Below, piece by piece: positions 8,857-64,000 of a stretch of DNA of 64,000 bases. How positions within the stretch are numbered: the first letter of the stretch is position 1; each line of letters opens with the position of its first letter. Both the position numbers and the translations under genes were made by a program. This DNA is from Candidatus Omnitrophota bacterium (GTDB lineage: Bacteria; Omnitrophota; Omnitrophia; Omnitrophales; Aquincolibacteriaceae), in NCBI GenBank assembly GCA_035368605.1, contig DAOSLF010000003.1, positions 889-64,888 on the forward strand, given 5' to 3'. The notes below the pieces were generated by a model. That model had not been told where the DNA came from. It did not search any database and was given only the letters and a program-made list of their open reading frames with translations.

Positions 8857-10272
8857 ATGAAAAAGACCATAGCGGTCCTTGCGATTCTCAGTATCACATT
8901 TTTGTCCCCCTTTTCCGCCTGGGCCGTCGGGTCAGGAGGCCTCGAGAACGCCTCCTTCAGCGCCCAACAGCTGAGCCTTGGCGGCGCCACGACAGCGACA
9001 CCGGATGAACCGGCCGCCATCTCCTACAATCCCGCCGGCATCGTGGACCTTCCCGGCGTCCAGGTCCAGGCCAGCCAGAACTTTATCAGCATGCTGACGT
9101 TCAAGGATAATGACGTCACAGGGGACACCCGGAGCTCGGGAACGCTCGCGTATGTCCCGACCGCGTATGTCACGATCAACCCGGGAAGGGTCTTCTGTGA
9201 CCGCCTGGCTTTCGGCATCGGAAGTGACTCCCCCTTCGGGCTCATGAACAAGTACAATTCCAGTGATCCGGCGACCCATTACACGGGCTGGCGGAACTAT
9301 CTCAAGATGTTCACGCTAAAACCGACCGTCGCCTACAAGTTCACGGACAAGCTCTCGATCGGCGGCGGCCCGATGTGGTACCGGATTTACGATTTCGGAG
9401 GCATCCAGGGTTATCCGAACAACCTCATCACGATCCCCTTCCTCGGAGTCAATACAGCTGACGGACAGATCAGGATCAACACGTCCGGCAACCATTGGGG
9501 ATGGCAGCTCGGCACACTCTATAAATTCAATGAAAAACACCGTGTCGGTTACTACTTCCGCAGTCCCGTGGTCGTGAACCTGAAAGGCCGGGTCAAGGTA
9601 GAAAACTCCAACATCTCACCACTTCTCGGCGGTCTCGGCCTCCGTAATTTTGAGACCGGTGTGCATACGAAGATGAGCCTTCCGATGAGCATGACTTGGG
9701 CCTACGCGTACCAGCCGACGAAGAAAACACACTACGAAGCCGATTTCATCTGGACCCGCTGGTCCACCATGAAACGCGTCTATTTCGTGAACGACACTTC
9801 CGGAAACGCGCTGGACGATGCGATCCTGAACGCGGTCCGCAGCGCCGACAAAGACTGGCGGGACGGCTTTGGATTACAGCTCGGGGCAAGCCACAAGCTC
9901 ACGGACAGGCTGACGCTCCGCGGCGGAAGCTGGTTCTACTGGACCCCGGTCCCGAAAACCCATTTCACACCAAGTATCCCCGATGCCAATCACCTGGTGC
10001 TTTCTCTCGGTCTCGGCTACAAGCTCAGCAAATATCTTGTCGCCGACCTCGCCTATTACAACTCGTTCTATTTCAAACGCCGGATCAATAATGACATCGC
10101 CGAGAATGCCGCGCTCCTCAACTCCTCCGTGGACGGGCATTACAAGACTTATTCGCAGGGCCTTACCGTCAGCATGACGCTCAAGTGGGATGATATCTTT
10201 CCCCGCGTGACGCGCGCGGGCGACGAGGAATCCATCGGTTCGTCCATGAGCATGAACCCGGCCGCCAGATAA
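8857..10272 (+). CDS. outer-membrane transport protein, FadL/TodX (OMPP1) family
   Basis: Start chosen at the internal ATG (MKKTIAVLAILSITFLSPFSAWA, a signal peptide) with GAGGAG SD. The N-terminal hatch-like segment includes AISYNPAG (NPA-type motif), characteristic of FadL-family proteins. Alternating aromatic residues and length are consistent with a beta-barrel. Confidence 0.6.
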   Translation: MKKTIAVLAILSITFLSPFSAWAVGSGGLENASFSAQQLSLGGATTATPDEPAAISYNPAGIVDLPGVQVQASQNFISMLTFKDNDVTGDTRSSGTLAYVPTAYVTINPGRVFCDRLAFGIGSDSPFGLMNKYNSSDPATHYTGWRNYLKMFTLKPTVAYKFTDKLSIGGGPMWYRIYDFGGIQGYPNNLITIPFLGVNTADGQIRINTSGNHWGWQLGTLYKFNEKHRVGYYFRSPVVVNLKGRVKVENSNISPLLGGLGLRNFETGVHTKMSLPMSMTWAYAYQPTKKTHYEADFIWTRWSTMKRVYFVNDTSGNALDDAILNAVRSADKDWRDGFGLQLGASHKLTDRLTLRGGSWFYWTPVPKTHFTPSIPDANHLVLSLGLGYKLSKYLVADLAYYNSFYFKRRINNDIAENAALLNSSVDGHYKTYSQGLTVSMTLKWDDIFPRVTRAGDEESIGSSMSMNPAAR

Positions 10273-28059: not shown

Positions 28060-28863
28060 TTACATCATTCCGAGAACATGGCCCATATGATAGAGACCCG
28101 TCTTCTTTTTCGCAAGGAATTTTGCCGCCAGAAGCGCGCCCCGGGCCAAAGCTTCGCGGGAAGTAGCCTTGTGGACCAGTTCGACACGCTCCCCATCCCC
28201 GAAAAACGACACCGTATGTTCACCGACCACGTCGCCGCCCCGCATGGCGAATACGCCGATCTTCCCTTGCTGCCGGGCGCCGGTGTCCCCTTCGCGGCCA
28301 CAGACCAGATCCTTCGCCGGGTCCCTGCCTCTTGCATCGGCCAGAATTTCGGCCAGTTTAAGAGCGGTGCCGCTCGGCGCGTCCTTTTTCATCCGGTGGT
28401 GGATTTCCATGATCTCGAGGTCGTAGCTTTCGTCGAGGACCTTGCCCGCGAACGCCGCGAGGCGGAACAGGAGGTTCACCCCCACGCTCATGTTGGGCGA
28501 CTGGACGATCGGTATCTTCTTTGAAGCGAGGGCGATTTTTTTCATCATCCCGGGAGGAATCGCGGTGGTCCCGATCACATACTTCTTCTTCGCCGCGACA
28601 CAGGCCGCAAGGTTATCCGGCAGCGCCGAAAAATGACTGAAATCGATCAGGACATCCGACGTCTTCATGACCGCGACCGGACTGGAATCAATCCGGACAT
28701 TAAGGAGATCGCCGCCGATCAAGGAACCGATATCCATGTCCAGTGTCGCGTGGCCGCGCTGTTCGATGCCGCCCGTGATCCTGAACGCCCTGTCCTTCGC
28801 AGCGAGCTTCAGGATGATCTTTCCCATCCTGCCCGCCGCGCCCGCCACCGCCAATCTGATCAT
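28060..28863 (-). CDS. dapB: 4-hydroxy-tetrahydrodipicolinate reductase
   Basis: MIRLAVAGAAGRMGK... gives full-length DapB similarity. Start set at the internal ATG with a strong AAGGAGAAGGG SD. The ORF-track upstream extension has no support. Confidence 0.9.
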   Translation of the reverse strand: MIRLAVAGAAGRMGKIILKLAAKDRAFRITGGIEQRGHATLDMDIGSLIGGDLLNVRIDSSPVAVMKTSDVLIDFSHFSALPDNLAACVAAKKKYVIGTTAIPPGMMKKIALASKKIPIVQSPNMSVGVNLLFRLAAFAGKVLDESYDLEIMEIHHRMKKDAPSGTALKLAEILADARGRDPAKDLVCGREGDTGARQQGKIGVFAMRGGDVVGEHTVSFFGDGERVELVHKATSREALARGALLAAKFLAKKKTGLYHMGHVLGMM

Positions 28864-28877
28864 ACCCTTCTCCTTAT

Positions 28878-28901
28878 ACCACTCCAACCTACGAGGTTGG
28901 A
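28878..28901. repeat. element A copy 1: 24-nt repeat containing perfect 8-3-8 palindrome TCCAACCT-ACG-AGGTTGGA
   Basis: accactccaacctacgaggttgga is identical to 34999-35022. It lies in the dapA-dapB intercistronic region, directly 5' of the dapB SD on the mRNA. Confidence 0.8.
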
Positions 28902-28907
28902 TTTTGG

Positions 28908-29792
28908 TTAAACGATTTTCAACGTTTTGAGAACTGCCCGCAGTTTCTTCACGTTCTCCGGTTTCATCTCGCAGAGCGGAAGCCGCAGCTCCGGCTTGAT
29001 CATCCCCATCATCCCGAGCGCCGTCTTGGCCGGAATGGGATTCGTCTCGATGAAGACCGCTTTGGAAAGAGGATAGTGTTTCTTGTGGAGTTCCCGCGCC
29101 TTCGCCATATTGCCGTCGAGCGCCGCCCACACCATGTCATGAACGAGCTTCGGCGCGACGTTCGCCGACACCGAGATCACACCCACCGCCCCGGCCGCGA
29201 TCAGCGGGAAGGTCAGGCTGTCCTCGCCCGAAATGACGGGAAGGTCGCAGAGCTGCATGATCTGGTCCGCCTGGTCCATGCTCCCGCTCGCTTCCTTGAT
29301 CGCGACAATATTGTCGATCTTCGAAAGCCGCGCCACGGTCTCAGGCGCGATCGACACTCCGGTACGCCCCGGCACGTTATAAAGGACGATCGGGATGTCA
29401 ACCCGGCCCGCGAGGTATTCGTAGTGGCGGTAGAGACCTTCCTGCGTCGGCTTGTTATAGTACGGCGTCACGATCAGCGCCGCGTCCGCGCCGGTTCGCT
29501 TCGCATGCTGGACAAGGCCGAACGCCTCCGCGGTATTGTTCGACCCGCACCCCGCAATCACGGGGACGCGCCCGTTCACGTAATCGACGACGAACGACAT
29601 TGTGTCACGGTGTTCCTCATGCGACATCGTTGCGGACTCCCCCGTCGTGCCGCAGGGAATGATCACGTCCGTCCCGGCCTTCAGGTGGAAATCGATGAGC
29701 CCCGCCATCGCCTTGCGATCGACCTTACCGCTCCTGAACGGCGTGACAAGCGCAACCATGGAACCCGCGAACCTTATTTTCTTTTTAGCCAT
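28908..29792 (-). CDS. dapA: 4-hydroxy-tetrahydrodipicolinate synthase
   Basis: MAKKKIRFAGSMVALVTPF... has DapA/NAL-family TIM-barrel similarity throughout. Confidence 0.9.
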   Translation of the reverse strand: MAKKKIRFAGSMVALVTPFRSGKVDRKAMAGLIDFHLKAGTDVIIPCGTTGESATMSHEEHRDTMSFVVDYVNGRVPVIAGCGSNNTAEAFGLVQHAKRTGADAALIVTPYYNKPTQEGLYRHYEYLAGRVDIPIVLYNVPGRTGVSIAPETVARLSKIDNIVAIKEASGSMDQADQIMQLCDLPVISGEDSLTFPLIAAGAVGVISVSANVAPKLVHDMVWAALDGNMAKARELHKKHYPLSKAVFIETNPIPAKTALGMMGMIKPELRLPLCEMKPENVKKLRAVLKTLKIV

Positions 29793-29816
29793 GTTCTCTT
29801 CCTTCTCCCTGCCTGA

Positions 29817-30629
29817 TTAAAGAAAATATTCGCCCCGATAGACAACCTGCGCCTTCCCCTGAAGGAAGGCCTTTGTGACGACGGTACCTTTGCGCTCCAG
29901 ATCGATCACAAGCTTCTCGCCGCCCCTCGTGTGGACCGTGACCGGTGTCGCGACATACCCCTTGAGCACGCTCACGACGGAAGAAGCCGTCGATCCCGTC
30001 CCGCACGCGAGCGTCTCGTTCTCGACACCGCGCTCGTACGTCCGGACCATGATCTCGCGCTTGCTCTTCACCTCGACAAAATTCACGTTCGTTCCCGCCG
30101 GCTTGAACTTCGCATGCGTGCGGACTGCCCGTCCGACGGTGGCAACATCGATCTTCCCGAGCCCCTCCACAAAGATCACGATATGCGGGACACCGGTGTC
30201 GACGAACGCGTAGTGGAGCCGGTGGCCGGAGACCTCAAGCATGCCGCTCATCTCAAAAATCCTCGGCTTCACAAGCTGGACCTTCACGTCACCGCTTTGT
30301 CCGACTGCGGCCTCAATGAGTCCGGAGCCCGACTCAAAGATCATCTTTGGGGGCAGTTTGATAACTTCGCGCGCATACAGGGCAATACAACGGAAACCGT
30401 TCCCGCAGGCCGCGGCCTCGGAACCGTCCAGGTTGATGATCCGCATCCTAAAATCCGCCTTCGCGGACTTTTCATAAAGCAGGACGCCGTCCGCGCCCAC
30501 TCCCTGATGAAGCTCGCAGACCCGCTTCGAGAAAGCGGCGGCGTTCTTTACGACCCCCCGTCGGTTGTCCACAACCACGAAATCGTTCCCCGAGGCGACC
30601 ATTTTATAGAAGGGTATTGTTTTTCTCAT
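29817..30629 (-). CDS. dapF: diaminopimelate epimerase
   Basis: ...SGNDFVVVD..., and catalytic Cys motifs (ACGNG, CGTG). Confidence 0.9.
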   Translation of the reverse strand: MRKTIPFYKMVASGNDFVVVDNRRGVVKNAAAFSKRVCELHQGVGADGVLLYEKSAKADFRMRIINLDGSEAAACGNGFRCIALYAREVIKLPPKMIFESGSGLIEAAVGQSGDVKVQLVKPRIFEMSGMLEVSGHRLHYAFVDTGVPHIVIFVEGLGKIDVATVGRAVRTHAKFKPAGTNVNFVEVKSKREIMVRTYERGVENETLACGTGSTASSVVSVLKGYVATPVTVHTRGGEKLVIDLERKGTVVTKAFLQGKAQVVYRGEYFL

Positions 30630-30788
30630 GATAACGTCTTGATAAACCTGCGGTTAGGCGGGCGTATTCTATCAAATCCCCCCCGGGAATCCAAAAGGAT
30701 TGATTGGAAAGGAGCCGGGGAACCGCACGAAGAGTTTTGCGGCCTCTTTCCGGGCCCCCGGATCAAAACTTCGCGAAGGCGGGACAAA

Positions 30789-31013
30789 TCAGGTCTGATT
30801 GTCGCTTTCGGGATTCGTTTTATCGAGTTTCTTGCACACGTCCCTCTTACAGATGCATCCCGTCAACTCCTTCACAATGACGGCCACACCTAGCACGGTC
30901 AGGGCAATCGGGGCCCAGGAGACATTCCACCAGGCGAACACGATCACAAGCACTCCGGCGAGCGCGGAACAGCAACAACACGGACTCTTGTGACTTTCTT
31001 TCTTTTTTTCCAT
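30789..31013 (-). CDS. small (74 aa) cysteine-rich membrane protein, hypothetical
   Basis: Internal ATG with a strong SD (AAAGGGAGGGG). MEKKKESHKSPCCCCSALAGVLVIVFAWWNVSWAPIALTVLGVAVIVKELTGCICKRDVC... has a CCCC motif plus two predicted TM helices. Confidence 0.55.
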   Translation of the reverse strand: MEKKKESHKSPCCCCSALAGVLVIVFAWWNVSWAPIALTVLGVAVIVKELTGCICKRDVCKKLDKTNPESDNQT

Positions 31014-31202
31014 GACCCCCTCCCTTTCTCGGTTAAGCGGCTCAGGCCGGCATCGTCTCACTCATGTTCATGCCGCCCCCTTTCACTTTTATCCACGGGC
31101 ATTCCTTCTGTTGTTTCATTTCTTTCCACTGCTCGGCCGTTGGGATGGCCTTGCGTTCGGCGTCCTTATGGATCGCAATCCACTTGGCCTGCGCCTTGAG
31201 AA

Positions 31203-31245
31203 ATGGGGTCAGTCACCATTTCCCTGAAATGGTGACTGACCCCAT
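31203..31245. repeat. element B copy 1: 43-nt perfect hairpin (19-bp stem, loop CCCTG); terminator-like, 8 nt past the decarboxylase stop
   Basis: atggggtcagtcaccattt-ccctg-aaatggtgactgaccccat, followed by a U-rich tract on both strands. Near-identical to 46915-46957. Confidence 0.8.
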
Positions 31246-31252
31246 TATTTAT

Positions 31253-32434
31253 TTATACGAGAATGACCTTGGCAGGTTCGAAGCCGTTGAAATTGGGGAC
31301 AGCGCTCGCGCAGGAGTAGGCGCCGATATTCTTGACGTAAACAACATCCCCGACGAACAACTCGGGGAACTCTTCGTTCGATGTGAGGATATCAAGCGAA
31401 TCGCAGGTCGGGCCCGCGATCACGCTCATGGTCTTCTGCCCGCGTCGCAAGGTCTTGAACTCGTACTTGCAGTGATCGAACATCATCCCTGAAAAATCCT
31501 GGTAGATGCCATCATTGATGTAGTAGAAGTTCTTGTTGTCGCGGAAGGCCTTCCCCACCACCTGCGTCACGAGCACGCCGGAGGGACCCGCGAAAAACCG
31601 CCCCGGCTCGGCGATAAAATGAGTGGATTTCGGAAAGAGCTCCTTCATCTGCTTGCGGATCTGCGCGGCCATCCGCTCAAAGTTGATGCCGATCTCGTTT
31701 TCAAAGTGAGGTATCGGGAACCCGCCTCCGATATCGACGATCGAAAGCGGCATGCCGTTCTCTTTGGCCTCCCTGAAAATCCCGGCCGTGAGCTCGAGCG
31801 CCTGCAAATAATTTTCGACGTTCGTCGACTGCGAACCGACGTGAAAGCTCACGCCTTTCGGCACGAGCCCGAGGCTTTTCGCCTTCCGCAAGAGACAAAA
31901 CCCCTGGTCCGGTTCCGCGCCGAACTTAAGCGACAGCTGGACGACCGAGCCGCGGTTCTCGACGCGGATCCTCAAGATCACGTGCGCTCCGGGGAAACTC
32001 TCCGCGATCTTGTAAAGCTCGGCTTCGTTGTCGAAGGTCATGAGCCGGACGCGGCGCTTGCGGGCGGTGACGATATCCTCTTTCGACTTGATCGTATTCG
32101 CGAAGATGATGTGGCTCGGTTTCGCGCCCTGCTTGAGGACGAGTTTCATCTCGGCCGCGCTCGCGACGTCGAAGCAGGCCCCGAGCTTCGCGAAATATTT
32201 GACGATCCGCGGATGCGGATTGGCCTTGATCGCGTAATAAGGCGTCACTTCCGGCAGGGCCTTTCGAAAGCGGTTGAACTGCTTCTCGAGGACACTCTTG
32301 CGGATCAAGAGAAAGGGCGTCTTATGCTTTTTCAGCATTTGCCGGATCAGATTCTCGATACCCGAGGACTCCGTCGGCCTGACCGCCTTGTTTAAAAACG
32401 AAATGCTCCCACTCTCAAGAAGGGGCTGTTTCAT
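31253..32434 (-). CDS. PLP-dependent fold-III decarboxylase (ornithine/lysine decarboxylase-like)
   Basis: 393 aa. YAIKANP (PLP-lysine region), FHVGSQ, GGGFP, EPGRF and GPTCDSLD motifs are characteristic of eukaryotic-type ODC/DapDC-family enzymes. The GPTCD active-site Cys is ODC-like. The ATG lies 6 nt after the hss stop. Confidence 0.8.
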   Translation of the reverse strand: MKQPLLESGSISFLNKAVRPTESSGIENLIRQMLKKHKTPFLLIRKSVLEKQFNRFRKALPEVTPYYAIKANPHPRIVKYFAKLGACFDVASAAEMKLVLKQGAKPSHIIFANTIKSKEDIVTARKRRVRLMTFDNEAELYKIAESFPGAHVILRIRVENRGSVVQLSLKFGAEPDQGFCLLRKAKSLGLVPKGVSFHVGSQSTNVENYLQALELTAGIFREAKENGMPLSIVDIGGGFPIPHFENEIGINFERMAAQIRKQMKELFPKSTHFIAEPGRFFAGPSGVLVTQVVGKAFRDNKNFYYINDGIYQDFSGMMFDHCKYEFKTLRRGQKTMSVIAGPTCDSLDILTSNEEFPELFVGDVVYVKNIGAYSCASAVPNFNGFEPAKVILV

Positions 32435-32440
32435 TCCGGA

Positions 32441-33943
32441 TCAACCCCTGTCGTCCACGAGGAAGGAGTTGAACTGCCAAAGCTCGTCCTTTTTCGGCGC
32501 CTTGGCCCCGAACCTCAGGTACTTCGTGTTGAGATTCTGAAGCGGCGTCCAGTCCGAGGGGATCGAAACGAACGGGACGATGTAAGGGGTCGCGAACTTC
32601 AGGATGAACTCGTGATCGATATCATCCGGGAGCAGAAAACCCTTGCGCGGATTGTCGATCATCCAGAGCGCCGCGGCGACCACGGAGACCGCCACCTGGA
32701 GAGTCGTCGCCTGCTGGTGCGCGACCAGTTTGCGCGTCGTGTGGATGTCGAGAAGCGAACCGCACCACCAGGACGTGAAATCATGTCCCATCAGGAGCAC
32801 ACCGAGCTCGTCGCGACCGTCAATGATATCGTCCGAAAGGATGCGCTGGTCCTCGTGCAGCTTGTACTGGCGCATCCGGAGCTCCTGCATCGAAAGGACC
32901 GCGGAATCGCAGGGGCAGTACGCGTAATGCACGGTCGGGCGGTACACGGCCTTGCCGTTCTTCCATACCGTGAGACGGTCGGAGATCGAAAACGCCTCGC
33001 CGTGGCGGATCACCATGCCGTTGATCTCCCCACAGGGCACCCACGAACGAACAAACGTGTTCATGCCAAGCGTGCCGAGGCAAATCTGGTTCTTCGGCCC
33101 CGTCCTGTGCTCATAGCCGTCCCTGGGAAGTTTCTTCTCGTGAGTCCCCCAGCCGAGTTCGGCCGGCGCGACACCCTCCTCATAGAACCCTTCGATCGAC
33201 CAGGTGTTCACGAACTCGTTGACGCGTTTCGGAACGTCCGTGACCTGCGTGTCTCGTTCGCTGATATGGATAACCTTGACGCCTGTTGTCTGCGCGAGCT
33301 TCGCGAAGTTCTTCCCGGCAAGAAAGCGCTCGAGGTTCTTCGCGCGCGGATCCCGCGGCTTTTCCTTCAGAATCTTCTTCGCGATATCGATCAGGGCCTT
33401 CTTTGTGAAATGGGACACAAGGCCGGGATTCGCGCCGTGGTCGACGATCGAAGTCGCGCCCTTCTCGTCGCCCCACTTCTCCTTCATGAGCTTGCGAAGC
33501 TTCATGTGGCGATAGTAGAGCGTGTATTGGGTCGGGTCAGTTCGCTTGTCGTCACGGTAAGGGTCCCATTCCTCGATCGAGGTGTTGACATAGAGGATGT
33601 TGTTTGCGCGACACCAGTCGAGGATCTCCCATGCGTCGATATTCCAGGCGAGGTCGATGATCATATCGCCGCACCCGACGTATTTCGCAAGAAGCTTCCT
33701 GTAATTGTCCCTCGTGACGCGATCGAAGACGTAGCGGACGCCTTTCTTCAGCGCGTCTTTTACACGGTGGCGGTTGTCGACGAAGTCCATAATCGTGATG
33801 TTCTTCGCGGGCATGTCGAAGTGACGCAGGATCAGCGGTGTCGCACATTGCGACACACCCCCGCACCCGATAATCAAGACCTTTCCGTTGAACTTCACGC
33901 GGGTCTCGGGGATGCTGGCTTTGACCTTAGGGTATTTGAACAC
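32441..33943 (-). CDS. hss: homospermidine synthase
   Basis: 500 aa. N-terminal NAD-binding GKVLIIGCGGVSQ, then VFVNTWSIEGF, AELGWGTHE, VRSW, AVYRPTVHYAYCPCDSAVLS, DELGVLLMGH, TGLQV, DWTPL and ELWQFNSFLVDD. All match, from memory, conserved blocks of characterised bacterial homospermidine synthase. GTG start with GGAGGG SD. Confidence 0.8.
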   Translation of the reverse strand: MFKYPKVKASIPETRVKFNGKVLIIGCGGVSQCATPLILRHFDMPAKNITIMDFVDNRHRVKDALKKGVRYVFDRVTRDNYRKLLAKYVGCGDMIIDLAWNIDAWEILDWCRANNILYVNTSIEEWDPYRDDKRTDPTQYTLYYRHMKLRKLMKEKWGDEKGATSIVDHGANPGLVSHFTKKALIDIAKKILKEKPRDPRAKNLERFLAGKNFAKLAQTTGVKVIHISERDTQVTDVPKRVNEFVNTWSIEGFYEEGVAPAELGWGTHEKKLPRDGYEHRTGPKNQICLGTLGMNTFVRSWVPCGEINGMVIRHGEAFSISDRLTVWKNGKAVYRPTVHYAYCPCDSAVLSMQELRMRQYKLHEDQRILSDDIIDGRDELGVLLMGHDFTSWWCGSLLDIHTTRKLVAHQQATTLQVAVSVVAAALWMIDNPRKGFLLPDDIDHEFILKFATPYIVPFVSIPSDWTPLQNLNTKYLRFGAKAPKKDELWQFNSFLVDDRG

Positions 33944-34018
33944 GATCGCTCACCCTCCATTGTTTGAAATTTGACAATAACCGTCACAAAAAACTTTTTC
34001 CCGTGAATCGGAAACCGG

Positions 34019-34047
34019 ATATTACATCATATCGTTTTCTGCATCAA
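34019..34047 (-). promoter_or_regulatory. putative sigma70 promoter of hss-decarboxylase operon (TTGATG-17-TAATAT)
   Basis: The minus strand reads TTGATGcagaaaacgatatgatgTAATAT about 75 nt upstream of the hss GTG. Confidence 0.45.
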
Positions 34048-34191
34048 CCACTAAACCCCGAAAAAACATATTTTTTTAAAAATTCCCCGCCGAAGGCCGA
34101 GAGCCAGGCCTTCAGCCCCAAGCCGCCATTGCGCCTTGACGGAAGCGGGCTTTACGTGGAGAATCTTCCCGCTGTCCAAAAAGGAGCCTTT

Positions 34192-34527
34192 ATGAAAAAA
34201 ATTCTTTGCGCGTTCCTCGCCCTTTCTGTTCTGACATCCGCGACGCCGGTCTTCGCGAATTTCGACAATTTTCAGAAGAGCCCCTGGACCGAAGAGAAGA
34301 CCTATGTCGATAAATCGGTCGGCAAGCTCGCCTTCGGTCTCACGAACATCACAGCCGGCTGGACGGCCCTCTTCTTCGAAACCGCGAAACACGGCAACAT
34401 CTTCGCGGGCATCGCAAAGGGTGTCTGGCGCACCGGGACCAACACCGTGGGCGGCGTTCTCCATGCGGCTACCTTCCCCGTCGCGGTGGATATCCCCCTT
34501 CCTGACGGAGGCGTGAAATTCGAATGA
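34192..34527 (+). CDS. small secreted protein, paralog A (111 aa), K-L-A-F-G-L-x-N-x-x-x-G-W motif family
   Basis: ATG with AAAGGAG SD. Signal peptide MKKILCAFLALSVLTSATPVFA. Shares GKLAFGLTNITAGWTALFFE with the downstream paralog. The stop overlaps the next start (ATGA). Confidence 0.65.
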   Translation: MKKILCAFLALSVLTSATPVFANFDNFQKSPWTEEKTYVDKSVGKLAFGLTNITAGWTALFFETAKHGNIFAGIAKGVWRTGTNTVGGVLHAATFPVAVDIPLPDGGVKFE

Positions 34528-35135
34528 AACGCTTCCTCGCGCTCGCCCTTCTATTGATGATCGCTCTCGCTCCCTCCGCGGTCGCAACGCCATGGGCCGA
34601 AAAGGAAGGTTACGGCGAAAAGACCAAAGGGAAGCTTGCGTTCGGTCTCCGCAACACGTTCCTCGGCTGGACCGAAATGTTCTCGGAGCCGAAGCGCTAC
34701 AAGTTCGACCTCAAGAAGAGCGAATGGGAAGGGTTCTGCATGGGAATCTCGAAGTTCGTCTTTTACACGGCGGACGGTCTGATCCAGCTCGCGACCTTTC
34801 CCATTCCCGTCGACTTCCCCGACTTCGGGGAGGGAGCGGTCCCGGACCTCGGAAAGAAAAAGGAAGGGCCGCCGAAACCGTGGGAGGTTCACGGAAAATC
34901 AAGGTACAGCGTAATTCCCGCCTCGGAAGTCCCGGCCACGATCCGCGTCACCAAAGCGAAGTCACCCGCTCCCGTTCCGCCGCCGATCCAGACTCCCCCG
35001 ACCACTCCAACCTACGAGGTTGGAATGGTTCCCACGACTTCTCTAGCGGAAACCGCGGCCCAGGATACTTCCGGGGTTCCCGAACCGCCGACTCTTGTCG
35101 CGACGCCGGTCCCCGACCTGCCCTACTCGAAATAA
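34524..35135 (+). CDS. small secreted protein, paralog B (203 aa) with Pro/Thr-rich C-terminal tail
   Basis: Signal peptide MKRFLALALLLMIALAPSAVA. GKLAFGLRNTFLGWTEMFSE is paralogous to gene A. Low-complexity PT-rich tail. Element A copy 2 lies inside the tail-coding region. Confidence 0.6.
   Translation: MKRFLALALLLMIALAPSAVATPWAEKEGYGEKTKGKLAFGLRNTFLGWTEMFSEPKRYKFDLKKSEWEGFCMGISKFVFYTADGLIQLATFPIPVDFPDFGEGAVPDLGKKKEGPPKPWEVHGKSRYSVIPASEVPATIRVTKAKSPAPVPPPIQTPPTTPTYEVGMVPTTSLAETAAQDTSGVPEPPTLVATPVPDLPYSK
34999..35022. repeat. element A copy 2 (identical 24-mer with 8-3-8 palindrome), inside coding sequence of paralog B
   Basis: accactccaacctacgaggttgga, identical to 28878-28901. Translated in-frame as PTTPTYEVG. 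Confidence 0.8.
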
Positions 35136-46087: not shown

Positions 46088-46175
46088 TTTAAGAAGTTAC
46101 GTCAAAAACCGGGGATGGACCGCGGCTCAAAACACTCATAACTCCATACCACGAATCAGGTTACGTGTATTTTGA

Positions 46176-46204
46176 TTGACATTCAGAGGTTAAATCTCTA
46201 TCTT
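46176..46204 (+). promoter_or_regulatory. putative sigma70 promoter of rnc (TTGACA-17-TATCTT) abutting the first ATGs
   Basis: TTGACAttcagaggttaaatctcTATCTT, directly followed by ATG (46205) and ATG (46214). The predicted TSS falls at about 46211-46214. Confidence 0.4.
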
Positions 46205-46213
46205 ATGAAATCC

Positions 46214-46915
46214 ATGAAAAAGACACCTCAGATCACCAAGTCCCTTCTCAAGAAGTCATTCGGCCTGACGGTCAAAAAAGTCCCTCTTTACGAAGCCGCG
46301 CTGACACACCCTTCCTTCCGGCATGAAAACCAGATCAAGGCCAAACTCGAGGATTTCGACCGTCTGGAATTTCTCGGGGACTCGATCCTGAACGAAGTGA
46401 TCTGCCAGAGGATCTACGCGGATTTTCCGGACGCCGACGAGGGCATGCTTTCGAAGCTCCGGTCGATACTCGTTTCGCAGAAGATCCTCAGCCGCATCGC
46501 AGCAAAATTCAAGCTTCACAATCTGATCCGGCTCGGGAACAGCCTGGGCCAGGCCATGAAAACGCCGTATAAATTCAAACTGATGACAGACTCGATGGAA
46601 TCGATCTTTGCGGCGGTCTTTTTCGATCTCGGCCGGAAAAAAACGGAGGCATTCATCCTGAAACATTACGCGGAATATATCGACGCCAAACGGCTATTCC
46701 GCCTTGATCCCAACCCGAAGAGCACGCTCCAGGAACTGACGCTCAAGAAATGGCAGAAACTTCCCCAATACACCCACAAGTTCGGTCCGAAAGGCGTGAC
46801 TACGACAGTGTCCATAGACCGCCGGCGCAAGGCTTCGGGATTTCACAAGATCAAGAAGGAATCGGAGCTGAAGGCGGCACGGGCCCTTCTGAAACTTCTC
46901 CGGCAGGAACAATAA
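46214..46915 (+). CDS. rnc: ribonuclease III
   Basis: RNase III signature ERLEFLGDSILN, the catalytic domain and a C-terminal dsRBD. Start ambiguous. The ORF track starts at TTG 46172, and ATGs sit at 46205 and 46214. 46214 (MKKTPQITKSLLKK...) is chosen because the predicted promoter lies inside the longer frame and there is no SD. The resulting N-terminal length matches typical RNase III. Confidence 0.8.
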   Translation: MKKTPQITKSLLKKSFGLTVKKVPLYEAALTHPSFRHENQIKAKLEDFDRLEFLGDSILNEVICQRIYADFPDADEGMLSKLRSILVSQKILSRIAAKFKLHNLIRLGNSLGQAMKTPYKFKLMTDSMESIFAAVFFDLGRKKTEAFILKHYAEYIDAKRLFRLDPNPKSTLQELTLKKWQKLPQYTHKFGPKGVTTTVSIDRRRKASGFHKIKKESELKAARALLKLLRQEQ

Positions 46916-46957
46916 TGGGGTCAGTCACCGTTTCCCTAAAACGGTGACTGACCCCAT
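46915..46957. repeat. element B copy 2: 43-nt hairpin (19-bp stem, loop CCCTA) between convergent rnc and asmA-like stops; bidirectional terminator-like
   Basis: atggggtcagtcaccgttt-cccta-aaacggtgactgaccccat. It differs from copy 1 by a compensatory A:T to G:C change in the stem and one loop substitution. It overlaps the rnc stop codon by 1 nt and ends 4 nt before the asmA-like stop. Confidence 0.8.
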
Positions 46958-46961
46958 TATT

Positions 46962-49445
46962 CTAATCCAGAACGAGTTCGAAAAGGAGAGCGCGGGCTTT
47001 TTTGTTCCGGATCTTTTCGACGAGTTCTTCGACTTGCGCGGGGTCCGGTTTGATTTCGGGAGCGGATAAGGGGCCCGTGACCAGCATCGTGATCGGCCCC
47101 AGATGGGCACGCGTTTCCCTCCGAAAGGTTCCAGCCATCTCCGGAAAAATCTCCGCGGCAAGGGTCGTCGGAAAAAAAACATCCCACCGGAAATTCGTCA
47201 GGCCATCGAAACCAAGCGTACCTTCCCCAGCCACGACATAATCGGAACCCCTGGTCAGGAAGTTATCCGTCATGACCTTGCCGTCGAACAGACTCCAATT
47301 GAAATCCAGTTCGCTGAACGCGCCCGGGTCTTTCAACCGTTCACGGATACCGGAGAAAGGCGTAATAGTCGCCACAGCGCCGGGCAGATCAATGAAATTG
47401 ACCCGGCCGTTCGAAAGAGTAAAACGACCCTTTCCGCCGAGCAAACCAGCCCAGTTGTCTTTCCCCCAGCCATTTCCATGCAATGAGAACTTCAGGGTAA
47501 GCGATCCCGTCATCGGCGGCTGTTCCTGGCCCGAGCGGGTCAGAAAGGATGCAAAGTCCAGCCCCTTGGCCTCGCCTTCACAAAGGTACCCGATCGGTTT
47601 GGCTGAAAGGTCCAGCGACCCCGCCAGATCCAGCATTCCGCCATAAACCTGGGCGTGGAACTTGGGAACATCCCATTGCCCGTCCGAATAAGCCAGTTCC
47701 GCCGAAAAATCCTTGAGCGTCTGCCCCGAGGGGAACAAGTCTCCGATCGAGGTCTTCACATGGTCGAGCACGTCCCTGCCGGAGGCGAGATCGGCCTTTT
47801 TCCGGAAAAGCGCCATGACCGCGTCCCAGAATTCTTCCACTCGCAATTCCCCCGAAGAAAGACGGGCCCAGACCGCACTCTTCACACCCGGCTGGGTGAC
47901 CTTCAGGTCCGCGACCAGAGCGCTCCCTCCGATCTCGAACTTCATCTCCCGCCCTTCGAGCATGAGCGGGCTGTAATCGAAGGAAAAATTCGCGTTCCCG
48001 ACGCCCTTGCCGTCCTTGCCCGTCAAAGCGCCGTTCTCGATCGTCACATGAAAGATCTGCTCGGTCTTGTCAAAATGCCGGAGGTCCCCTTTCCAGTTCG
48101 CAAGCAACTTGGCATCACCGCGGACCTGGTATCCCTGGAGGGCGGGAACGAATTTCTCCCAGCCCGTCATGGAGAATTTGTTGGTCAGGAGATTCAACTG
48201 GCCGATGGCCGTCGCCATATCAAGGTCGGTCAGGTTCCCTTTGAGCGACATCTCCTGGAACCGCACGGAGAAATCTCCCGAAAGCACCGATCCCTTTTGG
48301 ACAAGATAATCAAAGGTCACGAGGAACGGAACATCCTTTGGCTTCGCGAAATAATTCCCGTATGTAAGAAGCGCAGGGCCGAAATCGAGATTAAGGTGGA
48401 GCGAAAGATGATCGAGGGTTCCTTCCAGGCTCAGGTTCCATTGGCTCATCCCCGAAAAACCAATCTGGAGCGGGAGGGCGTTCTCGACTCCGGGCCAGCA
48501 GGTGACGAGCTTTTCAAGCGCCACTTCCCTGGATGTAAAAAAGAGGCTTGGAATCTCACCCGTCCCGAGCTTGACGGTGCCGTTCGACTCGACCACCCCG
48601 AACGGGAAACGGAAAGAGGATTGGCTGACGGTCAGTTCCTCTGCCGACGCATTCCAGGCGCCGGTGATGTCCATATCGAGATCAAAAGGTTCCGGAGCAT
48701 TCCATAGTTGGCCGTTCAAAACCTCATAACTCAGCCCCACGATCCGCCCGGTCCCCGAGAAATTCATCGCGGCAACCTCGGGCTGTTTTTTGACCTCAAA
48801 GGAACCGTCCAGGATACCGTTCTTGAAAGCAAAAAAACGTCCCGCCTCACCCGCCATTTTTCCGGGGTTCACAAGCGGAAGTCCCTTGAAATCGATCAAT
48901 AACCGGACATTCGTTTTATTCCAGTCCGGTTTTTCGACCGACGGAATGACCACATGGCCTTTGACGCCAAGCGCTTCGGCCCGGTCACCGACATCGCTGG
49001 TCATCTGGACCGGGATGGGAAGGTTCGGGCGGATCGCACCCATTTTCAGCGCGACGTTGCGGAACTGGAGCGGACCGAGCACCGGGAACCAGGGAATGCC
49101 GGCATCAGCCTGGCCGCCGAAGACACAGATGCCGGACGGCTCAACCCTGCCCCACGCCATCGGGATGATATTGAAATCAAAACGTATCGAATCCGCGCGG
49201 ATCGTCGCGGATCCGTCCGTGAACGTCAGGGAAGGTTTCAAGAGAGAAATGGCCGGCTGCGGAAGGAATTTGATCTCGATCCCGTCATGGGAGACGAGCC
49301 CGCCGGAGACATTCTGGATTTTCTGGATGAGATAATCCTGAACCCTGGGCGAGCGGAGGAGACGATCGGACTGGAACCAGACAAAAGCGGCAAAGGCGAC
49401 CGCGGCGAGGAAAAGTAACAGGAAAAAGCGTGCGCCTTTCTTCAT
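46962..49445 (-). CDS. AsmA-family outer-membrane assembly/lipid-transport-like protein
   Basis: 827 aa. Single N-terminal TM (MKKGARFFLLLFLAAVAFAAFVWF) followed by a long beta-rich periplasmic region with AsmA-like N- and C-terminal segments. Confidence 0.6.
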   Translation of the reverse strand: MKKGARFFLLLFLAAVAFAAFVWFQSDRLLRSPRVQDYLIQKIQNVSGGLVSHDGIEIKFLPQPAISLLKPSLTFTDGSATIRADSIRFDFNIIPMAWGRVEPSGICVFGGQADAGIPWFPVLGPLQFRNVALKMGAIRPNLPIPVQMTSDVGDRAEALGVKGHVVIPSVEKPDWNKTNVRLLIDFKGLPLVNPGKMAGEAGRFFAFKNGILDGSFEVKKQPEVAAMNFSGTGRIVGLSYEVLNGQLWNAPEPFDLDMDITGAWNASAEELTVSQSSFRFPFGVVESNGTVKLGTGEIPSLFFTSREVALEKLVTCWPGVENALPLQIGFSGMSQWNLSLEGTLDHLSLHLNLDFGPALLTYGNYFAKPKDVPFLVTFDYLVQKGSVLSGDFSVRFQEMSLKGNLTDLDMATAIGQLNLLTNKFSMTGWEKFVPALQGYQVRGDAKLLANWKGDLRHFDKTEQIFHVTIENGALTGKDGKGVGNANFSFDYSPLMLEGREMKFEIGGSALVADLKVTQPGVKSAVWARLSSGELRVEEFWDAVMALFRKKADLASGRDVLDHVKTSIGDLFPSGQTLKDFSAELAYSDGQWDVPKFHAQVYGGMLDLAGSLDLSAKPIGYLCEGEAKGLDFASFLTRSGQEQPPMTGSLTLKFSLHGNGWGKDNWAGLLGGKGRFTLSNGRVNFIDLPGAVATITPFSGIRERLKDPGAFSELDFNWSLFDGKVMTDNFLTRGSDYVVAGEGTLGFDGLTNFRWDVFFPTTLAAEIFPEMAGTFRRETRAHLGPITMLVTGPLSAPEIKPDPAQVEELVEKIRNKKARALLFELVLD

Positions 49446-50774: not shown

Positions 50775-53700
50775 TTACTGTTTAAAGGAAGCCCACTTCC
50801 TCGTGACCGGATCATAGCTTTTCAGCACGGATCTCCTTCCGGACTTAACCGTATAGATCTCTTTCAGGCCGGTAGCCGTCATGACGTAATAGAGCCCCGA
50901 GCGGTATCCCCTCCGGTCCTGCGAGCTCGGCTTCTCGGAAACCGCGCCCGTCGTAAGGTTCATGACCCGGACCTTGTTTCCTGAGATCGTCTGATACGCC
51001 AACGTCGCAAGCGACGGAACGGCGGTCCATCCCGCAGGGATGGGCCGCGGCACGATCTTGAGCGTGTTCATGTCGACCCAGGTCTGCGAGCCGTTCGTTT
51101 TGGTGATCACTGCGTTCATTCCTTCAAAAACAACCGACTTTGCCGCTCCGGAGACCCTCAGCTTTTGGGTCGCGTCCGCGATCTTTTGCACATAGATACT
51201 TCTCGGAGCAATGCCGTAGACCACGGTTGCGCCGTCAGGAGAAACGTCATAGACGCTGCTGACCGGAACCGTCGAATACCGCCCCCCTTTATAAACCTTG
51301 AATAGTACCTTCGACTCTCCTGTCTTCAGATCCAGCAGGATCAGCTTGCTATATCTATTCACGGTCTCGATCTTGAACGCGTAGTTCACGTTCGATGCCG
51401 CCCGAGTCCAGCCGGCGGGCAAAGGAGGATCCATCAACTGCAGCGTGTCGAGATCCACATACTTTGTTTCCACCGCTCCGCCCGAATGCGTGACCGTGCA
51501 GACCGCGACACTTCCCCGGTACTCCACAGCGGTTACGGCTCCCGAAAGCGTCATTTGCGCGGCAGTTCCCAGATTGATGATGAAGGTCTTGCTGTAATCC
51601 GCATCCCCGTTGCCGGTCGCGGAAACACCGACCGTCAGAACGGTCTTCCCGGAGGGCGTCCGGTACACATCGATCGTTCGATACGAACCCGACCCCGAAC
51701 TCCCGCCCGCCGCCTGGCTCGCCGGATAAAAAATCTTGACCGGCGTCAGAACCAGGTGCTCCGTCCCGGCGGAAGCATCATAGACAAACACTTCGTAGGT
51801 GTTGCTGTAGGTGATCTTCGTCGGAACAATGAGATACCCCTCATCCAGCACCGCATCCGCCTGCTCGAGAAGCGTGTGGTGAGACAAAGTGCTTGCGAGG
51901 GTCGTTTGATCCACCACATAAACATCCCCGATCCGGGTGCCGTTCCGGTAAGCCGTAGCCATTACCACCGAAACATTCCCGTCAGAGAGAAAACCGACGC
52001 TCTGGGGAATACCCGTGATGTCCGCATGTTTCGTGGCATCACCAACCTGCTGAACACGCAGCCAGCCCGTTGCCGGGGTGGCGTAATCGTTCCGCACGCC
52101 GAAATAAACCAGCTCGCCGCTCGGGGAAATGTCCATCGAGGTATAACTGTTCGGCGGCGATTGGAGAGAATAGAGTTCCCGGATCTCGCCGGTCCCGAGG
52201 TCCTGGATTTTTAATCTCGTGTAGTTGCCATGATTGTCCGGATTGATCCAATCCTCGGTCATAAACGCATAATTCGCATTACCCGCCGCCCGAGTCCAGC
52301 CGGCGGGCAAAGGAGGATCCATCAACTGCAGCGTGTCGAGATCCACATACTTTGTTTCCACCGCTCCGCCCGAATGCGTGACCGTGCAGACCGCGACACT
52401 TCCCCGGTACTCCACAGCGGTTACGGCTCCCGAAAGCGTCATTTGCGCGGCAGTTCCCAGATTGATGATGAAGGTCTTGCTGTAATCCGCATCCCCGTTG
52501 CCGGTCGCGGAAACACCGACCGTCAGAACGGTCTTCCCGGAGGGCGTCCGGTACACATCGATCGTTCGATACGAACCCGACCCCGAACTCCCGCCCGCCG
52601 CCTGGCTCGCCGGATAAAAAATCTTGACCGGCGTCAGAACCAGGTGCTCCGTCCCGGCGGAAGCATCATAGACAAACACTTCGTAGGTGTTGCTGTAGGT
52701 GATCTTCGTCGGAACAATGAGATACCCCTCATCCAGCACCGCATCCGCCTGCTCGAGAAGCGTGTGGTGAGACAAAGTGCTTGCGAGGGTCGTTTGATCC
52801 ACCACATAAACATCCCCGATCCGGGTGCCGTTCCGGTAAGCCGTAGCCATTACCACCGAAACATTCCCGTCAGAGAGAAAACCGACGCTCTGGGGAATAC
52901 CCGTGATGTCCGCATGTTTCGTGGCATCACCAACCTGCTGAACACGCAGCCAGCCCGTTGCCGGGGTGGCGTAATCGTTCCGCACGCCGAAATAAACCAG
53001 CTCGCCGCTCGGGGAAATGTCCATCGAGGTATAACTGTTCGGCGGCGATTGGAGAGAATAGAGTTCCCGGATCTCGCCGGTCCCGAGGTCCTGGATTTTT
53101 AATCTCGTGTAGTTGTTACGATTGTCCGGATTGATCCAATCCTCGGTCGCAAAAGCATAATTCGCATTACTCGCCGCTCGAGTCCAGCCCTGGGGGATTG
53201 CCGGGACATGATAAAGGTCCATCGTCCCCTGGAGGCCTATCCCCTCAATGATGACATAGATCGTTCGCACTTTCGAAAGATCGACCTGCTGGAACAGTGT
53301 CGCGGGAATCCGGTAAATGTTTTCCTCGCCGGATTCGATACCCGTCAAATGGACAAAAGCCTTCTGGTCATTTGCGTCCACAAATTCCAGTTTGATGGTT
53401 CCGGCGGTTCCCTTGAGCCCGAAAACAAACTCACTGAAACCGCTGAGGTCGTTCGTTTCAATCTCCGGAGTTCCGTAATGGTCGAACGTCAATCCCCCGC
53501 CAGCCCAACCGAATATGCCTGTGTTGTAGGTGAAAGAGCCCCCTCGGCCGTGCGCCGTCGCGGCGGCATTCGCATCCCCTCCATAAATCACCGTGATCAC
53601 CGGATTCCCGGGCAGGGGCGTCAGATTCTCGGAGGTCAGGAAAGTATCCGGGAGGATTTTCGGCTTGTAAGGATGTTCTCCCAACCGCACCTGGAGTTCC

Positions 53701-62207: not shown

Positions 62208-64000
62208 TTATTTATGCGCCTTCCAGTCCACCACAAGCGCCGTCGCGATAAAGATCGTCGAATAGATACCGACGCCGAACCCGACCAGCATCGCGAACGC
62301 AAAGTCGTTGATGCTCGATCCGCCAAAGAGGAACAGCGCCAGGGTCGCGAGGATCGTCGTGAAGCTCGTGAGGAACGTCCGGCTCAGCGTCTGGTTGATG
62401 CTGAGGTTCACGATTTCCGCGAACGGGGTCTTGCGCATCAGTTTTATGTTGTCGCGGACGCGGTCGAACGTCACAATCGTGTCATTGACCGAAAAACCCA
62501 TGATCGTCAGAACCGCCGCAATCGTGGGCAGGTTGATCTCGCGCCCGGAGAGCGCATACACACCGAACGTGAATATCGTATCGTGCATGATAGCGATCAC
62601 GGCCGCCAGCGAGAACTTCCATTCAAAGCGGAGCGCCAGATAAACGAGAATCCCGATCGCGGACCACAAAACCGCCCAAAGGGCTTTTTTTGTAAGGTCC
62701 TTGCTGACCGAAGGTCCCACATGATCAACACGAAGGATCTCGTAGCCTTTGTCACCGGCAAAGTTTTTGATCGCGGTTTCCACCTTCTGGGCCTCATTCC
62801 CGGCGATCCTGATGATGTACTGGTTGTCCTTAGTCTCGCCATACCGCTGGAGCGTGATGCTTTTCAGGTCTTCCTCCTCAAGCGCATCCCGGACCGCGCC
62901 GGCATCGACCGCATTCCTGAAACCGACCTGGACCAGTGTCCCGCCGGTGAATTCCACGCCATAATTTTGACCGCCCCGCATCGCGAATGCCGCGATCCCG
63001 ATCCCGAGCGTGATAATCGAGAACCCGTACGCCCAGACACGCCCCTTCAGGAACTGGATATTCGTTTTTTTGAAGAACTGATGCATGCGAAGGTTGAGGT
63101 TCGGGTTTCTCTTTGAAAGGAAATCAAAGATGACCCGCGTCACGACAATGGCGGAGAACATGCTGGCAATGATACCGATGGACAGCGTCACCGCGAACCC
63201 CTGCACCGGGCCCGTCCCGAATATGAACAGAAGAACCGACGTGATAAGCGTCGTCACGTTCGAATCAAGGATGGCCGAAAACGCCTTGTGATACCCCGCC
63301 GAAATGGCGGCCTTGGAACCCTTCCCCATCGCGACCTCTTCGCGCATCCGCTCCGAGATGAGGACGTTCGCGTCGACGGCCATCCCGACCGAGAGGATAA
63401 AGCCGGCGATACCGGGAAGCGTCAGCGTTGCGCCAAGCGCCCCGAGCGAACCGACCATGAAGATGATATAGAAAGTAAGGCCAATCACCGCCACAACCCC
63501 CGAGAGGAGGTAATAGATCGGCATAAAAAGGAAAATAAAAAGAACGCCCAAAAGACCCGCCCTGACGCCCTTTTCGATCGAATCTTTTCCAAGCCCCGGA
63601 CCGACCGTCCGCTCTTCGACGATACTCACGGGCGCGGGCAGGGCGCCGGCGCGGAGTACGAGCGCGAGATCGCTTGCTTCGGCGGCCTTGAAGTTCCCGG
63701 ATATCTGGGCCTTGCCGTTCGGAATCCTGTCGCGGATCACCGGCGCGGAATGCACCGTGCCATCCAGCACGATCGCGAGACGCTTGCCGATATTCTGGAA
63801 CGTGGCCCTGTCGAAAATCTTCGCGCCCTCGTCGTCAAAACTCAGCTGAACGATGGCCTGCCCGTAATTGTCAAAACCCACGGACGCGGTCGTCAGATGC
63901 CCGCCGGTGAGGATCGCCTCTTTGGAGAGAAGGACCATATCCTCCGCCATGTCGGATTTGACCTTTTTATATTCATACCCTTCCGGCACCTGTCCTTCCG
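62208..64000 (-). CDS. secDF: protein translocase subunit SecDF (fused), partial: N-terminus beyond window end
   Basis: SecD periplasmic and TM regions (…LAIVLDGTVHSAPVIRDRI…), and a SecF-like C-terminal TM bundle. The frame is open to the window edge. Confidence 0.85.
   Translation of the reverse strand, partial: EGQVPEGYEYKKVKSDMAEDMVLLSKEAILTGGHLTTASVGFDNYGQAIVQLSFDDEGAKIFDRATFQNIGKRLAIVLDGTVHSAPVIRDRIPNGKAQISGNFKAAEASDLALVLRAGALPAPVSIVEERTVGPGLGKDSIEKGVRAGLLGVLFIFLFMPIYYLLSGVVAVIGLTFYIIFMVGSLGALGATLTLPGIAGFILSVGMAVDANVLISERMREEVAMGKGSKAAISAGYHKAFSAILDSNVTTLITSVLLFIFGTGPVQGFAVTLSIGIIASMFSAIVVTRVIFDFLSKRNPNLNLRMHQFFKKTNIQFLKGRVWAYGFSIITLGIGIAAFAMRGGQNYGVEFTGGTLVQVGFRNAVDAGAVRDALEEEDLKSITLQRYGETKDNQYIIRIAGNEAQKVETAIKNFAGDKGYEILRVDHVGPSVSKDLTKKALWAVLWSAIGILVYLALRFEWKFSLAAVIAIMHDTIFTFGVYALSGREINLPTIAAVLTIMGFSVNDTIVTFDRVRDNIKLMRKTPFAEIVNLSINQTLSRTFLTSFTTILATLALFLFGGSSINDFAFAMLVGFGVGIYSTIFIATALVVDWKAHK

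Follow-up and report, generated by a model that had tools for sequence, protein, structure and literature searches.

Two short palindromic repeats in a 64,000-nt stretch of DNA from a Candidatus Omnitrophota bacterium (GenBank assembly GCA_035368605.1, contig DAOSLF010000003.1, positions 889 to 64,888), hereafter called the window, were identified as very probable repetitive extragenic palindromic (REP) type elements of a system formed by such elements and a REP-associated tyrosine transposase (RAYT), a reading to which we assign a probability of roughly 85%. One copy (copy 1) lies in the spacer between dapA and dapB, and the other (copy 2) is translated as part of a secreted protein, here named paralog B. 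Systems of this kind are already known as selfish or domesticated DNA. The dispersal of the repeat in the genome, its hairpin architecture, its occurrence together with a RAYT-like gene, in this species as well as in other genomes, and the motifs and fold of the encoded enzyme were all observed directly.

The sequence ACCACTCCAACCTACGAGGTTGGA is repeated exactly at positions 28878-28901 and 35001-35024 of the window, the shared exact stretch being 24 nt. Within it the 19-mer core TCCAACCTACGAGGTTGGA (28883-28901 and 35006-35024) is made up of 8-bp arms and a 3-nt loop, i.e., an 8-3-8 palindrome. An initial annotation made from the sequence alone had singled out this repeat as exceeding chance, which was confirmed: the chance expectation of a 24-mer repeat in 64 kb is approximately 1e-5, and none of 100 dinucleotide-preserving shuffles of the window gave an equal number of 19-mer matches, whereby chance was ruled out. 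The span given in that annotation (28878-35022) was correct at its start and 2 nt short of 35024 at its end. An assembly artefact was ruled out by the presence of both copies, unchanged, in approximately 20 independent metagenome or metagenome-assembled genome (MAG) assemblies of the same species from anaerobic digesters; both are likewise unchanged in two MAGs at NCBI. No third site was found when the window was scanned with the 19-mer at up to three mismatches, and no further diverged copies with up to four arm mismatches or compensated arms were found in the window. When a 2-nt indel was allowed the likeness of the two copies ran past the 24-mer (...GGA TTTTGGTT versus ...GGA ATGGTT), giving longer imperfect hairpins. 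Copy 1 thus extends over 28878-28908 (ACCAC-TCCAACCT-ACG-AGGTTGGA-TTTTGGT, with the ACG loop on the plus strand) and copy 2 over 35001-35029 (ACCAC-TCCAACCT-ACG-AGGTTGGA-ATGGT, with arms of 13 nt and one mismatch), neither being assigned to a strand.

The 24-mer, which had been taken as the repeat unit, did not hold up as such. The unit is a hairpin of approximately 31 nt with an invariant 19-nt top, the invariance of which is by construction of the search (exact 19-mer matches), and a variable yet paired lower stem with the consensus ACC-N1-3 / N1-3-GGT; one strand of the top carries GTAG. With few exceptions, the flanks of the core prolong the palindrome with mutually complementary bases that differ from copy to copy (e.g., aaccaaaa/ttttggtt, acctccaaa/tttggaggt, and ggcctgta/tgtaggcc). 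Over 87 distinct contexts the outward pairing amounted to 3.54 of 6 pairs, compared with 2.20 +/- 0.13 for shuffled partners, and none of 1000 shuffles reached the observed value. To judge from these sequences, the ACCAC common to both window copies is largely the outer-stem consensus ACC of the family, and the two copies therefore need not be specially related.

Scanning of one genome per GTDB species with the exact 19-mer returned 21 matches on 19 contigs, against approximately 4 expected by chance, in Omnitrophota, Berkelbacteria, Saccharibacteria, Desantisbacteria, and unclassified MAGs, some of the MAGs having several copies. Scanning of metagenomes added 76 further matches on 73 contigs; both collections are subsets without the window's own contigs, and all these counts are lower bounds. 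Most of the approximately 90 contexts of the exact 19-mer beyond the window species are intergenic. As classified with a crude open reading frame (ORF) caller, 32 copies lie in co-directional, 11 in convergent, and 8 in divergent spacers, with the remainder intragenic or at contig edges, and these proportions fit the published distribution of REPs, which are found chiefly between co-directional and convergent ORFs (PMC3733652). An exact 19-mer was also seen in the euryarchaeote UBA256 (L031, position 2309, within a 477-aa ORF; loci that were fetched are given here by such handles) and in this gene as recovered twice from metagenomes (L066, 9264; L093, 3115). The UBA256 match is probably a chance hit, lying within an ORF and having no extended palindrome.

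Further copies were located in the window species itself. Contig Ga0116243_10000152 matches the window at 100% identity, the NCBI organism name is "Candidatus Omnitrophica bacterium ADurb.Bin314", and the window proteins, DapB included, are present in GCA_002068945.1 and GCA_022705965.1. At least 10 copies at 7 loci were counted in approximately 115-120 kb of this species, 4 of the 10 being in-frame within ORFs, namely in the tail of paralog B, in queA, in a gene for a 3591-aa protein, and in a pabC remnant. The queA (tRNA ribosyltransferase-isomerase) copy is an exact core (L135, 4346-4364) on the same contig as the window, approximately 3.8 kb past window position 64000; it is read as PTYEVG inside the stretch TDPTYEVG, which aligns to an 8-residue gap in QueA of T. 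maritima (1vky). The exact copy in the 3591-aa ORF (L127, 7085) is read as IQPTRLD, and that in the 176-aa remnant of a pabC-like class-IV aminotransferase (L116/L114, 10194) as IQPRRLD. An exact copy at L059 (10139), accompanied by a degenerate inverted partner at 10162, has a gene for a small basic protein on one side and an rluA-like gene on the other, and three hairpins (L127, 9855, 9958, and 10667) surround the transposase gene described below. The 71 kb that were not chosen via the repeat (the window and 7.2 kb more) contain 3 copies, of which 2 are intragenic. Since the species has additional copies on other contigs, a purely local event (duplication or gene conversion) over the 6.1 kb between the window copies was ruled out. 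A reading of the two window copies as direct repeats bounding a 6.1-kb island was also rejected, the interval containing dapA, dapF (29817-30629, minus strand), and polyamine genes but no integrase.

The gene that links these hairpins to REP biology encodes P0144, a single-domain Y1/HUH transposase of 219 aa that carries the ADurb.Bin314 name at NCBI. It is located at L127 10001-10660 (JAKJDM010000004.1 of GCA_022705965.1), in a chromosomal context that is conserved in all assemblies; a tblastn search of the window for a RAYT found none. A hairpin with the exact core is present 25 nt 5' of the P0144 start codon (ATG; L127, 9958), the exact core with the loop orientation reversed lies 7 nt 3' of the stop codon (L127, 10667), and a third hairpin, TCCAACCTGTGAGGTTGGA, is found at L127 9855. 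P0144 matches Pfam Y1_Tnp, and its top NCBIfam model is the REP-associated tyrosine transposase (E-value 1e-16). Its top sequence match in the PDB is 4er8, the E. coli TnpA-REP, with the HUH (PTHIHLF) and Tyr (RYIHLNP) motifs aligned, and H87, H89, and Y147 are invariant across 39 homologs. The AlphaFold2 model of P0144 (mean predicted local distance difference test score, pLDDT, 86.5) retrieved 4er8 first in a Foldseek search (E-value 2.7e-7; template modelling score 0.62, normalised to the target), followed by TnpA structures of the IS200/IS605 family. The proposal of the initial annotation that the repeat is a small mobile palindrome tolerant of insertion into coding DNA gains support from the copy number, the four in-frame copies, and the hairpins flanking a RAYT-like Y1 gene in the species.

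The same association recurs in other genomes. Among all fetched loci the exact 19-mer was found on both sides of RAYT-like genes at L022, L026, L051, and L081 and beside them at L035, L075, and L100. At L022 the bracketed ORF is 236 aa as listed, and the called protein (P0142, 61% identical to P0144) is 218 aa; at L026 and L035, both from Berkelbacteria, the hairpin adjoins ORFs of 224 and 225 aa. The ORFs at L022, L026, and L035 match Pfam Y1_Tnp with the REP-associated tyrosine transposase as best NCBIfam model (58-70 bits), and the L026 protein, which alone of the three was compared with the PDB, has E. coli TnpA-REP (4er8) as its best PDB match, again with the HUH and Tyr motifs aligned. 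RAYT homologs sampled independently of the 19-mer (L132, L133, and L134) also have hairpins on both sides; those of L133 (TTATCACCtacgcGGTGATAA) and L134 (CCACCTACGAGGTGG) have a CCTACG(A/C)GG apex, and that of L132 (CCTCACTTccgAAGTGAGG) is without it. The enzymes flanked by the identical 19-mer (L127, L022, L026, L035, L075, and L081) share only 34-63% identity, and their likeness to one another does not exceed that to the enzymes with other hairpins (L132-L134), a comparison that is biased by the choice of loci via the 19-mer. Inverted doublets are found outside the window at L059 (10139/10162) and L022 (3650/3745).

These observations were also examined with regard to the possibility that the gene and its hairpins form an ordinary insertion sequence of the IS200/IS605 type, with the solo hairpins as decayed ends or derivatives resembling miniature inverted-repeat transposable elements. 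The Y1_Tnp domain and the rank of the IS200/IS605 TnpA structures as next-best fold matches agree with this, as do the flanking hairpins in direct orientation at L051 and L081, and the identical core among RAYTs of 34-63% identity could reflect horizontal spread. However, the RAYT-like proteins scored only 17.7-20 bits on the NCBIfam IS200 model (cutoff 55) and 58-70 bits on the RAYT model, and 4er8 was the best match by sequence as well as by fold. Moreover, the same hairpin sequence is present on both sides of the gene, where separate left-end and right-end hairpins would be expected of such an element, the solo units measure only approximately 31 nt, the RAYT gene keeps a conserved chromosomal context in all assemblies, and IMG/VR contained no match to the exact 19-mer. 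Taken together, an insertion sequence of this type appears very unlikely. The lack of an IMG/VR match also ruled out a phage origin.

Under the REP/RAYT reading, a RAYT-type enzyme would bind the hairpin when it is extruded on single-stranded DNA and would cleave and rejoin next to it, whereby units could spread or be maintained. Copies would persist where they are harmless, e.g., in short spacers between co-directional genes such as that occupied by copy 1, and in-frame copies would survive in tolerant loops and tails of proteins, as copy 2 (PTYEVG) may have done. Such in-frame survival could be expected because the genome is tightly packed and the core, as its sequence shows, can be read without a stop codon in five of its six frames.

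Several points weigh against this reading. The action of the enzyme on the hairpin, including cleavage and spreading, is presumed by analogy with E. coli TnpA-REP and the IS200/IS605 family. The GTAG is situated at the apex (CCT-CGT-AGG), where it overlaps the loop and the first two stem pairs, and the foot bears no tag of unpaired bases. Both copies in the window are singlets and not the inverted doublets known as REPINs, and the loop may face either way with respect to the RAYT gene, all four combinations being seen. The scores of 58-70 bits on the NCBIfam REP-associated tyrosine transposase model are below its 80-bit equivalog cutoff. The tally of at least 10 copies represents a partial genome, and the sample is biased, several of the extra loci having been found through the repeat itself. 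Lastly, neither window copy could be matched to an empty site, copy 2 having been compared with P0003, and an origin of the copies by insertion is therefore inferred, on the model of E. coli TnpA-REP and IS200/IS605. P0003, the closest ortholog of paralog B (from the species Bin277, 56% identity), has no such hairpin, and its tail is unalignable.

Paralog B itself (34524-35135, plus strand) is a secreted protein of 203 aa with a conserved N-terminal domain and a hypervariable tail rich in P, T, and A. The core of copy 2 is translated in-frame as PTYEVG in its P/T-rich C-terminal tail; the initial annotation had likewise described copy 2 as translated in-frame in the tail, with the reading PTTPTYEVG. 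The basic C-terminal end of the protein is conserved (SK here, SRIK in orthologs), which indicates that translation reads through the segment encoded by the REP. Paralog B and its neighboring paralog A form a tandem pair of small secreted proteins (window positions 33964-35135) that adjoins the polyamine and dap genes, whereas in the sister species Bin277 (L040, 5108-10648) the pair adjoins rplM-rpsI and an AsmA-like gene; from these different neighbors it follows that the pair moved as a unit.

The position of copy 1 just 5' of the dapB Shine-Dalgarno (SD) sequence had likewise been described correctly. Both genes are on the minus strand: dapA (28908-29792, 294 aa, Pfam DHDPS, stop codon at 28908-28910) lies upstream of copy 1, and dapB (28060-28863, 267 aa, Pfam DapB_N and DapB_C, ATG at 28861-28863) lies downstream, with its SD sequence AAGGAGA at 28869-28875. 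The spacer between them is 44 nt (28864-28907), 30 nt of which are occupied by the hairpin; the outer arm overlaps the final base of the dapA stop codon, the other end is 2 nt before the SD sequence, and on the minus-strand mRNA the core ends 7 nt 5' of it. The minus-strand RNA folds with -17.6 kcal/mol into the 8-bp stem and an outer ACCA/UGGU stem. An intrinsic terminator was ruled out for copy 1, since the minus (dap) strand continues with GUGGUAUAAGG after the hairpin, without a U-tract, a T-run being present on the antisense plus strand only; copy 2 has no T-run and was rejected as a terminator as well.

This arrangement could be taken to mean that the hairpin acts first and foremost in cis at the RNA level, as an mRNA stabiliser, processing site, or device for translational coupling, and was selected for the control of dapA and dapB, with the other copies having the same RNA role. 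The stable fold fits exactly between the stop codon of dapA and a point just ahead of the dapB SD sequence, hairpins at L028 and L034 are likewise positioned just upstream of an SD sequence and ATG, and the majority of copies, being located in co-directional or convergent spacers, would be transcribed. In E. coli, as Newbury in 1987 and Liang, Rudd and Deutscher in 2015 reportedly found, REPs stabilise the upstream mRNA and affect the translation of an upstream gene with a nearby stop codon. On the other hand, copies occur in both orientations to transcription and within ORFs, they consistently bracket a transposase gene, the local fold z-scores are modest (-1.7 to -2.6), and the Rfam 15 covariance models gave no match in the whole window at gathering thresholds. 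An RNA role would also leave the identical 19-nt core beside unrelated genes in several phyla unexplained. We therefore consider it unlikely that such a role is the primary one. With copy 1 as a REP-type element, its hairpin on the dapA-dapB mRNA could still, as a secondary effect, stabilise the message near dapA or change termination and re-initiation; such effects at the RNA level are plausible. The modulation of dapB translation or the mRNA processing raised in the initial annotation would be permitted by the anatomy, as the hairpin fills the gap up to 2 nt before the SD sequence, and any effect on dapB would be a side effect of REP insertion and not the reason for the existence of the repeat.

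The initial annotation had further suggested a binding site of a dimeric regulator, or operator, common to dapB and paralog B. The perfect 8-bp inverted repeat would suit an operator of this kind or a site for a host architectural protein, and REPs and bacterial interspersed mosaic elements of E. coli do bind IHF, gyrase, and Pol I. The suggestion was not supported: the copies are within or beside unrelated genes here and in other phyla, with functionally unrelated neighbors across the approximately 90 contexts. Any dapA promoter would lie upstream of copy 1, which is in a spacer of the operon, four copies are deep within ORFs, and the 3-nt center together with the compensatory changes in the outer stem points to hairpin extrusion instead of duplex recognition. 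A role as an operator or architectural site is thus extremely unlikely.

The pabC-like copy is located at a site that is shared with other Omnitrophota but carries different palindromes there. The window species lacks pabB, and its pabC-like class-IV aminotransferase is reduced to the C-terminal 176 aa (L116, 10001-10531), being probably a decaying gene, and the relatives at L130 (3001-3897) and L131 (3001-3888) retain the order DUF1015-pabB-pabC-purH-folC. At one position of pabC these three Omnitrophota have different palindromic doublets with compensatorily changed arms (L130, 3533-3574; L131, 3535-3575; L116, 10194-10235), consisting of a direct doublet of TCCGACCCCGGAGGTCGGA at L130, of GCACCCCGGAGGTGTG followed by ACACCCCCGGGGTGTG at L131, and of the exact core with a degenerate second unit in the window species. 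These sequences suggest that the position in pabC is an intragenic hot spot at which putative REP units are replaced or homogenised.

A broader proposal is that the 19-nt top represents a recognition module, either conserved from far back or passed on horizontally, of a large RAYT clade in ultra-small bacteria (Omnitrophota and Patescibacteria), that this module has remained identical while the enzymes diverged to 34-63% identity, and that its units have been incorporated recurrently in-frame into proteins of these compact genomes (QueA, PabC, a giant surface protein, and a secreted tail). On this view, the three differing palindromes at the pabC site would point to REPs being exchanged in concert at fixed hot spots within genes. 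This we put forward tentatively, as a possibility that we hold to be doubtful at present; the RAYT clade comprises more than 3,000 protein clusters.

Two other repeats were noted in the window. One is a palindromic repeat of 48 nt (AATAATGGGGTCAGTCACC...GGTGACTGACCCCATTATT), unrelated to the first, that is present at 31202-31249 and 46914-46961; its arms measure 21-23 bp, and the sequence on either side of it is A/T-rich. Its first copy is just past the stop codon of a decarboxylase-like gene (31253-32434, minus strand), and the second fits exactly between the convergent ORFs 46172-46915 (plus strand) and 46962-49445 (minus strand). It looks like a repeated bidirectional terminator from its sequence and position, and was seen in the window species only, among the loci fetched up to that point. 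Furthermore, a direct repeat of 300 nt (51366-51665 and 52254-52553, 96% identity, 888-nt spacing) is probably a tandem duplication of a gene or domain.

If the window copies are REP-type elements, a puzzling exact repeat is explained by ordinary REP/RAYT biology, no new regulatory mechanism is needed for dapB, and a REP/RAYT system is documented in Omnitrophota and in bacteria of the candidate phyla radiation, for which no description linking REPs or REP/RAYT to either group was found in the searchable literature. For the REPIN/RAYT field it adds a GTAG at the apex, one core across phyla with divergent enzymes, and many in-frame copies, even in the conserved QueA. The intragenic copies offer natural tests of how much palindromic DNA the proteins of a streamlined genome can absorb.

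In comparison with the REP/REPIN and RAYT systems of E. coli, Pseudomonas, and Stenotrophomonas (4er8; PMC3116915, PMC5581495, PMC3733652), the elements described here are similar in being short dispersed palindromes of approximately 30 nt, in lying mostly between co-directional or convergent genes, as far as the crude ORF calls over all contexts show, and in bracketing a Y1/HUH transposase gene, the closest solved relative of which is TnpA-REP. They further share the GTAG motif, occasional inverted doublets (here at L059 and at L022, 3650/3745), and intragenic copies. Di Nocera et al. described REPs that end on one side in an unpaired GTAG or CGTC tag, and reported RAYT genes with REPs of the GTAG type next to them on the flanks (PMC3733652). 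The present system differs in its hosts, which are Omnitrophota and Patescibacteria and not Proteobacteria, and in its enzyme, which is approximately 220 aa compared with 165 aa and is below the NCBIfam RAYT cutoff. It also differs in the hairpin, in which the GTAG is in the loop and the top of the stem whereas classically it is unpaired at the foot, and in which the top is invariant and the foot variable. A single 19-nt core occurs across phyla with RAYTs of only 34-63% identity, and the intragenic share (4 of the 10 copies seen in the species) is unusually high, the contexts as a whole being mostly intergenic.

Intragenic REPs have been reported in several species, including Opitutus terrae (PMC3733652). 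Like these and the Rickettsia palindromic elements (RPE), the in-frame palindromes found here are situated in genes that include housekeeping genes, and they add short peptide segments in tolerant regions. They are unrelated to RPE in sequence, and a cognate RAYT is present here, whereas we know of no dedicated transposase for RPE; elements of the RPE-1 family are also longer, at roughly 100-150 bp. The sub-terminal hairpins of IS200/IS605 elements (IS608, ISDra2) are comparable in that a Y1 HUH enzyme of shared fold is involved, which in that family recognises DNA hairpins on single strands. IS200/IS605 elements, however, have distinct left- and right-end hairpins and move as whole insertion sequences in multiple copies, whereas in the system described here the same hairpin sequence is found on both sides of the gene and solo units of approximately 31 nt dominate.

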